This document shows, piece by piece, positions 9,412-15,500 of a DNA stretch of 64,000 nucleotides. How positions within the stretch are numbered: the first letter of the stretch is position 1; the number at the start of each line of letters is the position of its first letter. The DNA lies in assembly GCA_000934665.2 (NCBI GenBank), contig KZ538284.1:1-64000 (forward strand), read 5' to 3'. Position numbers and translations under genes: made by a program. The notes below the pieces were generated by a model. The model was not told the DNA's origin, searched no databases, and saw nothing but the letters and a program-made list of their open reading frames with translations. This DNA comes from Catajapyx aquilonaris. Its lineage: Eukaryota.

Positions 9412-9552
9412 CAGTTGCCACAGCCGGCTGTGTTGCCACATTTCAGTCGGCACAGTTGCCACATTGTGGGGCTGTGTTGCCACATTGTGGGGCTGTGTTG
9501 CCACATTTCAGCCGGCATAGTTGCCACATCCTCTTTCAGCGCAGTTGCCATG
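9412..9552. repeat. Minisatellite, ~7 units of ~20-22 bp with core GTTGCCACA
   Basis: Repeated GTTGCCACA core, with GTTGCCACATTGTGGGGCTGT present twice exactly. Confidence 0.85.
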
Positions 9553-9942: not shown

Positions 9943-11756
<1,814 letters not shown>

Positions 11757-11759
<3 letters not shown>

Positions 11760-11774
11760 CTAGGGAAGCTGTGA
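11757..11774 (+). promoter_or_regulatory. Stop-codon readthrough signal (UGA-CUAG) with short extension X-L-G-K-L-stop
   Basis: In-frame GAT TGA CTA GGG AAG CTG TGA at the end of MDH1. Confidence 0.75.
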
Positions 11775-12548
11775 AGTGGCGCAGTCCAGTTTTAAAAGAA
11801 CCCGTAGACATCCATCGTTAGAGACGTTTACCGGTACATGTTTCCTCCAGTGGGATCAAAATCCACGCTTAAAAAGAAGAAGAGAGAGAGATATACGTAT
11901 ATAAACAAGGTGGTGGTGGACTCGGAACAAAATAAATAAAGATCTTATTTTGCACCGGAAAATAACAAATGCCTTGGATCATGTTTTCACTTTTACTACT
12001 CTTACTGAGCGGTTTTTTAATATATATTTTTACAAGCATGATCGTAGGTCCAGGGAGGTAGAATTGAAAGGGAGGGGGGGGAGGGAAAAGGATTGGAGGA
12101 GATATACTTCACACGTAAGGCACCCAATAGATAGATACACACACTTCCCCTCACCCAAACAAAATCCGTAATAATAATAAATTGTGGAACCTAAACGACA
12201 TACATGAGCCATCCCATACATTAGATGTAATTACGCAGCGTAAGGGAAGTGACAGGACTTTTTTTGGGGGGGGAAGGAAATGGTTTTCTCAACACGCCCG
12301 TTTCTAGGGAGAGGGTAAAAGGGAAATAGTCTTTGTCACGGTGTCTTCAACATGGAAGTCGTGGGCATGGCTTACAGTTGGGGCGGCGGCGGAGTGGGAG
12401 GGCAGAGCAGTGCAGGAAGTGAGAGGGAAAGAGAGAGGTTGGGGCAACACATATCCTAATCTGCAAGGGAGATACGGGTATGCTTTCGATTTGTTTTTCT
12501 TCTCTTATTTTTTTGGTGTGTTAGCTAGCACCCTGCTTCGTTCAGAGT

Positions 12549-15500
12549 TCAGTTGAGATGGAAGCCCTTCTCTGCAGTAGCGGCCAGCAGCCTCTCTCTC
12601 ATGAGTTCCTCCGTCGGGTAGTCTGGCAGCTTGAGGTAGTGGACGCAGGTGTTGACTGACGGGTACGATCCCTCCCCTGCGTCCACTTTACGCACCACAG
12701 TCAGTCGTGGGCTCAGGTTGGCCAGTCCTCCAGGCGGAAGCGACGAGCAACCTGTGGTGAACTGCAGGAATGCCTTGCGCTCTACTGGGCTCATGTGGAC
12801 CAGCACATTCACGAACCGCTGGAACCCAGGGCTGTAAAGACGCAACCGATTAATTCTCACGACTCAAGCGAGAGGACGAATCAATCCCCGCCCCAGACTG
12901 ACCTGTCCTTCGTGTATCCTAGCTTTGGCTCTGTGTAGTTCAGGATCTCATCCCTCGTCCAACTGGGCATCTGCTCCCCGCACAGCATGAGCCTGACTTC
13001 CTCTGGGCTGAAGGAGCCCAACTTGGCCATGGGAAAGACCTGGTCGAATCCACGTCTGAAGGCCTCCACCTGCTTCCGGATACCTCGCCACAAGCACCAG
13101 TCCGTTGCAAGTTCCACGTACTCTTCCACGTTGCCCATGCCAACCTCCTCATCCTCTCCGTGAGGCCTTAGTTCTACTGCCTGGTATCCATACACCTGAG
13201 CGCAAGTTACAGAAAATTGCAGTAGACATGTCGCAGCTTATATGTATGTAAGTGAAAAGTACCTTGGATGATGGGGCAAACTGGAAGGTCAGCCCTAGAT
13301 CCCCCAGCTTCACGGCTGGACCTGGAGGCTGCCCGGCTGGTTGCGGCAAGGCCAGGTTCTGCAGCTGGTGCAGCCTGTCCTCCTCCGACAGCGCTCGATC
13401 CCTCAGGATGGCCTGCTTACGAGCCGACAGCTCCCTCAGCTGCGCCAGGAAACCGGCATGGTATTCGTCCACCTCTTCCAGGTCGGCAGGGGTCAGAATC
13501 CCGGCAAACCATGGCCGCGAGGGGTCAGCACTGTCGTTGGAGTCAGCGCATGGTCTGGCTTTTGGAGGATCAAGCTCCAGCTCCTTCTCGCTCTCCTCGG
13601 ATATGTAGGATGAGGACATGAGGTCATCATCGTTTCCACTACCAGGTGCGGAGGTCGGGGGAGGAACAGAGAGCTGTGAGGATGGGGTGGACGTGGAGGG
13701 TGAAGCGGCCAGCGAGAACCTCCTGGCCCTCTGCCTGGCGTCAGTGCCTACGTCGCCCTGGCACATGAGCTTGAGGAAGGGTCGCGCTAATGGCAAGTCC
13801 ACTAAGCGATTGTCCTGCAGCACCTTCGCCAGGAACACTCCTAGCAGGTGGTACACACGGCAAGCACGCTCACAAGCAGGACTGTCTTGCGGCAGAGGAG
13901 CAGGGAACAACCCGTGCACACGATGGATGTAGTACCTGTAAACAAATTTAATGTTGCAAAAAGGCATCGACTACTTCCCATATAATGATCGCTTACCCAG
14001 GCGGTTTGACACCGGCAGATCCCAGATGCAGCGCTTGCAAGTTGTCTTGGTCTGGCGATCCGGCTTCAAGGGAGTCCGCATCATCACACAGCCACGATGC
14101 GAGGTCTTTCCTCTGCAGCTCAGCCGCCACTAGGGCGTAGAACTCCAGAGTGGGTCCCAGACCAGTGCCTTCCTCCCCGGAGAACTCGACTTCCAGGATC
14201 CCCTTCCGCTTGGAGTGTATTTTCATCACTTGCATGGCCCATTCCAGAAGCTCCTCTCCGCGGGGCACCTTCACTCGCTCATGCTTCAGTCGCCCTACAC
14301 GGAATTCATGGGGATCGTCCCTACGTAGCGGGGATGGCCCTCCGCCCCGGTTTCTCTCCAGGGCCAAATCCCGTTGGCTCTGCAGCCACACAATGGAGCG
14401 CGAGGCTCCGAAAGCGGTGCAGTTCAGGTACAGCTGGCGAATCTCAAATGGGAACAGCATGGGACAGGAGAAGGTCAACTCCTCGCACCACTCGGGAAGG
14501 GCCCCCGAGGAGAGGACCAGCGGGTCTTGCACCTGCTGCACCAGTTTGTTAGTCAGCTTCTTGCTAACAAACTCCTCTGGAGGAACGTGGAGGGTAGCCC
14601 ATCGTTCTTCCTCTCCTTCCTCCTCCCCCCAGTAATCCCCATCTGAAAATGCAATGAGCATGTTATTTTCTCTCACCAACAATATCTACATATGGTAATT
14701 ACATCAGCAAATTACTCACTGTAGAAGTGGTTTTTGGCATCCTTGGAGAGGGCGTACAGGTGCCTGAGAAGCTGCAGAACATCCTCCACGCTACAAGATG
14801 GTTCAGTCGAAGTTCCAGTCGGGGAGTTCTGGTTGTGGCCTGGGTTGGGAGACGCAGGGAAGAGGGAGACGACAGGCGTCTCCTCGATTTCCAGACTGTT
14901 CTCTTCATCCTCACGCACCTCCTTGTACATTATCCTTTCATGGGGGGAAAAGAAACTCTGCTTTAGACCGTGTCTTGTACAGCATTTTCTCTCTCTCTCT
15001 TCATATTGGGACATGACGTAACTTACACATATGTGGGCTCCCACACCCTCCTGAGCTTGTCCTGCCTGCTTCCCATGTCTGACGCCTGGACCAGCTGCTG
15101 CACTGACTTGAAGATGGCTGCCTCCGAATCGGTCAGAGGCACCTGAACATCAGCCACCCCTGGCAGGTTGGGACCCTTCAGAACCAGCTTCAGCTTTGGC
15201 TTAGGGCTCAGTTCTTCATCCGAGGCTGTCGACGGAGGCTCCTCTGTTCCAGGCGAGGGTACGTCCAAGTCCGTGGTTTGGTTCACGTTGGTACGTCCGG
15301 GTCTTGGGTCAAACGCAGGGATCAGAGCAGAGAACTGCCTCTTCAGGACGAAGTCATCGTCCCAACTTCGGCGCTTGCCATTGCGGCTCTCACACGCACC
15401 GGGCTCCTCTTCCCCCTGCAATTGCTTTGTGAAGCTCGTCAGGCTGCCCCACTAGCACACAAGCAAGTGTTAGCCAGAAGCATGCCAAAAGAAGTCAAAG

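Follow-up and report, generated by a model that had tools for sequence, protein, structure and literature searches.

The cytosolic malate dehydrogenase gene (MDH1) encoded in the 64,000-nucleotide stretch of DNA analysed here (the window) ends in a stop codon whose surroundings raise the question of whether a second, longer form of the enzyme is made and sent to peroxisomes. The letters at 11751-11774 are CAG GAT TGA CTA GGG AAG CTG TGA when the frame of the last MDH1 exon is followed, and if the first TGA is taken as a residue the protein continues as ...VCQD-x-LGKL up to a second TGA; both the letters and the x-L-G-K-L extension are as the original prediction had described them. The best explanation, to which a probability of about 0.55 is assigned, is that a peroxisomal MDH1 isoform is made through UGA readthrough and carries a -GKL tail. 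In this mechanism UGA CUA G, the strongest known leaky context, would let a few percent of ribosomes place an amino acid at the UGA codon, and four more codons would be translated before termination at the following UGA, so that the product would be MDH1 extended by x-L-G-K-L. The C-terminal -GKL would then serve as a weak peroxisomal targeting signal of type 1 (PTS1) read by PEX5, and a minor fraction of MDH1 dimers would enter peroxisomes, where they would re-oxidise NADH via a malate/oxaloacetate shuttle.

Gene identification and structure

MDH1 is a four-exon gene at 10516-11759 on the + strand, and its GT..AG introns are very short (55, 121 and 60 nt). Exon A (10516-10717) runs from an ATG at 10516 to a donor GT at 10718 and matches Ldh_1_N (E 2.7e-9). 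Its first residues align with MAEPVRV... in the relatives, and the ATG at 10516 is the probable MDH1 start codon, with a further exon upstream possible. Exon B (10773-11254) holds 160 codons and a split codon between an acceptor CAG at 10770-10772 and a donor GT at 11255, and is matched by both Ldh_1_N and Ldh_1_C in Pfam. Exon C (11376-11600) matches Ldh_1_C (E 4.5e-15), and both of its boundaries are bridged by a contig of the public run X1. The last exon, exon D (11661-11759 including the TGA, coding part 11661-11756), ends ...EALSVCQD, and a Pfam search with its 32 amino acids returned no family; Ldh_1_N or Ldh_1_C was thus found in three of the four exons (A-C).

A protein search with exon B scored 8000 candidates, 7999 of them at E <= 0.001, and among the 120 listed the best named matches were decapod proteins designated 'malate dehydrogenase, cytoplasmic' (81-83% identity). 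The search with exon C found nothing closer than approximately 82%. The spliced window protein is 77.5% identical over its whole length to a Penaeus japonicus protein (P0003), and the closest protein identity found was 83% for one exon and approximately 77% overall. A FastTree phylogeny of 58 sequences (52 hand-picked from 227 database proteins, the window protein and the five metagenome transcripts L001-L005 described below), which carries no support values, placed the window protein among the pancrustacean sequences, near their base and without a close relative. The domains and the closest similarity to animal cytoplasmic malate dehydrogenases assign the predicted protein to the cytosolic NAD-malate dehydrogenases (MDH1), and judged from these comparisons the gene is the MDH1 of a pancrustacean-type arthropod. 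The identification of the gene as MDH1 in the original prediction is accordingly borne out by the Pfam Ldh_1_N/Ldh_1_C matches and by the similarity to decapod cytosolic enzymes.

The G+C content of the MDH1 coding sequence is 59% (75% at third positions) compared with 45.5% for the whole window, which contains one N. Approximately 1 kb upstream of the gene lies a 21-nt tandem repeat (9425-9529; 4.8 copies, 77% matches) with a perfect core of 2.5 copies at 9455-9507.

Transcript evidence

Of the words sampled from 11376-12000, 84% were present in the public run X1 (kind not on record). A 500-letter X1 contig joins 11254 to 11376 and 11598 to 11659 (equally 11600 to 11661), both across GT..AG introns; these joints are exactly the predicted introns, and the last three MDH1 exons are linked by them. 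The bins 11742-11863, which contain the stop codon and the extension, are covered by the same contig, for which no differing letters, insertions or deletions were listed. Because the contig is spliced and unchanged past the stop, a spliced form of MDH1 exists that carries TGA CTA GGG AAG CTG TGA. The X1 evidence consists of assembled contigs, which are uninformative on level, ends or translation, and contig depth is absent in bins 10400-10826 (the exon A region).

Stop codon context

The first TGA and the CTAG that follows it (11757-11763, + strand) read TGACTAG and form the full 7-nt high-readthrough context UGA CUA G, in agreement with what had been claimed for this stop. The extension CTA GGG AAG CTG (11760-11771, + strand) encodes L-G-K-L, with -GKL as a putative weak PTS1, and is closed by the second in-frame TGA (11772-11774, + strand; next base A). 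UGA CUA G has been defined as 'the high-TR motif', and MDH1 was the best context in the same work with 7.8% readthrough in HeLa cells (PMC12233894, PMC4973966). Human MDH1 is described as the most robust readthrough case (PMC12233894, PMC4973966, PMC5133446); its 7-nt context alone gives approximately 4% readthrough, the next 50 nt are not needed, and Trp and Arg are inserted at the UGA (PMC5133446). The shorter UGA CU is leaky in fungi and in human cells (Stiebler et al. 2014, PMC4207609). These figures for the strength of the motif come from mammalian and fungal cells, not from arthropods; among arthropods, Jungreis et al. (2016, PMC5100048) report abundant readthrough for insects and for a crustacean, the single one that they tested, but not for a centipede.

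The RNA downstream showed no unusual stability. The 124 nt from the stop fold at -28.8 kcal/mol compared with -25.6 +/- 3.3 kcal/mol for shuffled sequences (z = -0.99), and 32 of the 200 shuffles fold at least as well. Taken with the lack of a SECIS element or other Rfam family in the region (see below), this agrees with a signal that relies on nothing but its context.

Metagenome transcripts of relatives

When metagenomes were scanned with 24 aligned MDH1 proteins, 592 stretches matched; 586 were confirmed as relatives, and 80 of them were kept. Five of the kept loci are animal-type (L001-L005; 60-74% identity, contigs of 1.1-1.7 kb) and were read together with L072, which was excluded as not animal-type (53% identity; stop TGA GCG; tail ...FVKL). 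The other 74 (52-60% identity, mostly long contigs) were taken as bacterial-type. A scan of GTDB genomes for stray host contigs gave no eukaryotic title among 80 records, nearly all of which were bacterial. Comparison at the DNA level therefore extends to relatives of at most approximately 77% protein identity.

The animal-type transcript L001, which shares 75% identity and the native end ...SVCQD with the window protein, reads ...ALSVCQD TGA CTA TAT... and continues in frame as x-LYESNVSHSTGSGSQLSHL, a tail of 19 amino acids ending SHL. L003 reads ...FIQQ TGA CTT AGC AAT TTA TGA, giving x-LSNL, and L004 reads ...CNAN TGA CTA GAA GAG TCC AAA TTA TGA, giving x-LEESKL behind the full 7-nt motif. 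Three of the five animal-type MDH1 transcripts thus have TGA CT and, in frame behind it, a short tail that ends S-[H/N/K]-L. The arrangement is not universal: L002 has the native end ...VCKL, a PTS1-type tripeptide in the normal frame, followed by TAA, and L005 has a TAA stop, its contig ending 5 nt further on. The idea that a much shorter extension sets the window gene apart did not hold, the tail of L003 (x-LSNL) being equally short.

The recurrence of TGA CT and PTS1-ending tails in invertebrate relatives (the three transcripts and the drosophilid protein P0176 described below) favours common ancestry over coincidence, as far as these sequences can be read. Deep bilaterian ancestry or convergence had been put forward as the choice that such a gene would pose; deep ancestry is not a new idea, having been in print since 2014 (PMC4207609). 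Most likely, on this comparison, the gene is a member of an MDH1 readthrough/PTS1 system common to other invertebrates.

In the insect-like L004 the tail x-LEESKL contains 'EESK', which is common to vertebrate tails of the readthrough form MDH1x (...EESKCRL and ...EESKSRL in Table S2 of PMC4207609). This likeness hints that the extension itself, beyond the device, may be homologous across bilaterians.

MDH1 C-termini among database proteins

Among the 227 database relatives, 211 were judged complete at the C-terminus, and 35 of these 211 end in CQD as the window protein does. A strict PTS1 tripeptide closes nine relatives (CKL in five, SKL in three and CHL in one), and SNL, CNL, NKL or GKL closes 13 (12 of the 211 and P0136, which ends SNL). 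The native end ...AVCKL occurs in an arthropod-type group (P0082, P0200, P0205, P0207 and P0217) and, as ...VCKL, in the transcript L002; this PTS1-type end is two residue changes away from the common ...VCQD. An MDH-like fragment (P0228) has the native end ...GEGKL. A protein search with the last 40 window residues, read through the stop, returned three matches, none with a tail of the W-LGKL type.

Several states were seen within the Drosophilidae (P0128-P0130, P0143, P0146, P0152, P0168 and P0176). In Drosophila virilis, D. montana and others MDH1 stops at ...SVLDSN, in the D. elegans/erecta group it continues natively as ...LDSNVSNL, in D. innubila it ends ...LDSESKL, and some drosophilid proteins end natively in ...SASNL. 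The drosophilid P0176 (Logan-derived) reads ...SVLDSN-W-LAGERDSKL, which corresponds to the 311-aa relatives with ten residues added; by its sequence this is an SKL-ending in-frame tail behind the usual stop, whether the W codon is TGA or TGG. To judge from these ends, the family looks like a case in which MDH1 has repeatedly switched from a stop-gated PTS1 to a constitutive one or back, and across the arthropod sequences putative readthrough tails and native SNL, SKL or CKL ends stand side by side as what would be interchangeable devices.

The -GKL tripeptide as a putative targeting signal

GKL had been called a non-canonical tripeptide, which is correct: it fits the strict PTS1 pattern [SAC]-[KRH]-[LM] at -1 (L) and -2 (K) and departs from it at -3, and it matches only the broader PTS1-like pattern. 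The residue at -6 of the extended tail is acidic (D). When the SKL of the EHHADH tail was changed to GKL, the apparent affinity for PEX5 dropped 4.5-fold, from 6.44 to 1.42, and EGFP carrying that GKL tail was 'predominantly cytosolic' in COS7 cells with 'slight residual import' (PMC6770196). The functional SHL of DAO has an affinity of 1.86 in the same table; the closeness of the two values suggests that GKL is weak rather than dead and that context matters. GKL is also reported to be the targeting tripeptide of AGT in fruit bats and sloths (PMC12960970). A search of the literature found no description of an MDH1 readthrough tail ending GKL, nor of a crustacean case specifically. In the window gene the -GKL tail is of uncertain function.

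The strongest rival explanation, which we consider somewhat unlikely, accepts the readthrough and takes the tail to be the decayed remnant of a better signal (for example A/S-K-L changed to G-K-L), such that the extended isoform, a few percent of the enzyme, would be essentially cytosolic and without a peroxisomal role. The COS7 reporters described above speak for it, and a leaky context that is intact in the window while relatives have the stronger SKL, SHL and SNL has the look of a weakened derivative. A useless leaky stop would nevertheless be expected to drift, yet all seven bases are kept; GKL retains a PEX5 affinity close to that of the functional DAO signal; and MDH1 is very abundant and dimeric, so that weak import of a small fraction may suffice. 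We infer that readthrough probably occurs at the window stop and that the -GKL tail may be imported.

A different account of the Gly at -3 follows from the shortness of the tail. In a four-codon extension the -3 codon begins with the final G of UGA CUA G, so the residue at -3 must be encoded by GNN, and only Ala or Gly then remain among PTS1-compatible residues. GKL may therefore be what it costs to fit the complete 7-nt motif into a minimal extension. In L003 the -3 residue is Ser, and the G of the motif is missing (CUU AGC). The more far-reaching proposal, offered tentatively and regarded as unlikely, is that arthropod MDH1 repeatedly switches between a readthrough-gated and a constitutive PTS1, and that the window gene is the minimal form in which motif and signal overlap, with GKL as a selected compromise, not decay. 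CUA would supply the Leu at -4, the final G would force the GNN codon at -3, and the lineage would trade PTS1 strength (Gly for Ser) for full leakiness, while L003 would have made the opposite trade, gaining Ser from CUU AGC without the G at +7.

Chance occurrence and other decoding

The arrangement could also be a coincidence, an ordinary efficient stop followed by CTAG and a further stop by chance, with no meaningful readthrough or function. TGACTAG is not enriched in the window (three matches compared with 7.07 expected from shuffles), the tail of four codons is too short for a measurable coding signature, and 22% of random extensions have five or fewer residues, the stop position counted. 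The relatives compared are, moreover, distant (approximately 77% protein identity at best). In a first-order Markov model built on the window, which also gave the 22%, the probability of CTAG after a TGA is 0.0025, and that of a random in-frame extension ending in a PTS1-like tripeptide is 0.019 for the broad pattern (a PROSITE-style motif with P at -3 as our own addition) and 0.0026 for the strict [SAC][KRH][LM]. The joint chance of CTAG and a broad PTS1-like end is approximately 5e-5 per gene that has a TGA stop; very many windows were scanned, so the decisive weight must come from the orthologues. The pattern falls on the one enzyme known for exactly this device, and TGA CT with S[HNK]L recurs in three of five independent invertebrate MDH1 transcripts. 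Coincidence is accordingly judged improbable.

UGA also encodes selenocysteine, and recoding of that kind, or access to the tail by alternative splicing, is highly improbable, since no SECIS element or other Rfam family reached the gathering score in 11600-12200 (at E up to 10 there was no SECIS, and the four matches, E 3.1-8.8, were all on the minus strand), and the X1 contigs contain just two constitutive joints, none bypassing the stop, with the tail directly in frame behind it. Some fungi obtain a peroxisomal malate dehydrogenase through alternative splicing (PMC5133446).

Relation to known systems

In human MDH1 and LDHB, readthrough appends a PTS1 (PMC4207609). The original prediction had extended this to MDH1 and LDHB of vertebrates, which stands for MDH1, whose MDH1x tails end CRL or SRL in vertebrates; LDHBx is confined to mammals according to Hofhuis et al. 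(2016, PMC5133446). The MDH1 device was reported as conserved among animals as far as Hydra vulgaris (Stiebler et al. 2014, Fig. 4C, PMC4207609). In Table S2 of the same paper Drosophila melanogaster, the only arthropod in that table, is given as 'No readthrough' and 'Targeted' with an MDH1 ending ...SNVSNL, and Caenorhabditis elegans as 'Not targeted'; a review of Drosophila peroxisomes lists Mdh1 as peroxisome-positive (PMC7477296). The principle and the animal-wide spread of MDH1 readthrough were therefore published in 2014-2016, and the window gene opens no new question.

The window gene resembles vertebrate MDH1x in the enzyme, the UGA stop, the CUA (G) context and a tail ending x-[K/R]-L, and in both the first tail residue is a Leu encoded by the motif itself. 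The vertebrate tail differs in having 19 residues, a conserved ...EESK[C/S]RL and the tripeptide CRL (mammals) or SRL, whereas the window tail has four residues and GKL. Readthrough and import have been proven for the vertebrate protein; for the window gene both are predicted. The invertebrate MDH1 with a cryptic PTS1 described by Stiebler et al. (2014) are matched by L001, L003, L004 and P0176; the cited sections of that paper (PMC4207609) make no mention of a GKL tail. D. melanogaster Mdh1 is likewise an arthropod MDH1 with a peroxisomal form, but its ...LDSNVSNL lies in the ordinary frame and every molecule carries the signal. In mammalian LDHBx, D. melanogaster Idh and fungal Tpi1, leaky termination at UGA CU(A) similarly unmasks a PTS1 on a cytosolic metabolic enzyme; these are other enzymes, and their tripeptides (SRL, SHL) are canonical in the sources cited.

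If the peroxisomal isoform made by readthrough is real, a sparsely sampled arthropod lineage joins the animals in which some cytosolic malate dehydrogenase reaches peroxisomes in this way, and as few as four codons can suffice for readthrough targeting. It would also support peroxisomal NAD+/NADH shuttling by MDH1 as an old and widely kept requirement. For annotation, MDH1 models ending TGA CTA deserve a second, extended product.

Downstream region and neighbouring gene

Overlapping AATAAA polyadenylation-type hexamers, read from the sequence, are located at 11931-11940 (+ strand), approximately 175 nt past the stop. The summed contig depth drops between bins 11803-11863 and 11925-11985, a weak hint of a transcript end that comes from contigs only. 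A HECT-domain ubiquitin ligase gene lies at 12552-13237 on the minus strand, convergent with MDH1, and Pfam HECT was found in two of its exon ORFs (E 2.6e-25 and 1.5e-21). A minus-strand X1 contig of 3589 letters extends down to 11843, and the 3' UTRs of MDH1 and the HECT gene thus appear to overlap by roughly 100 nt.
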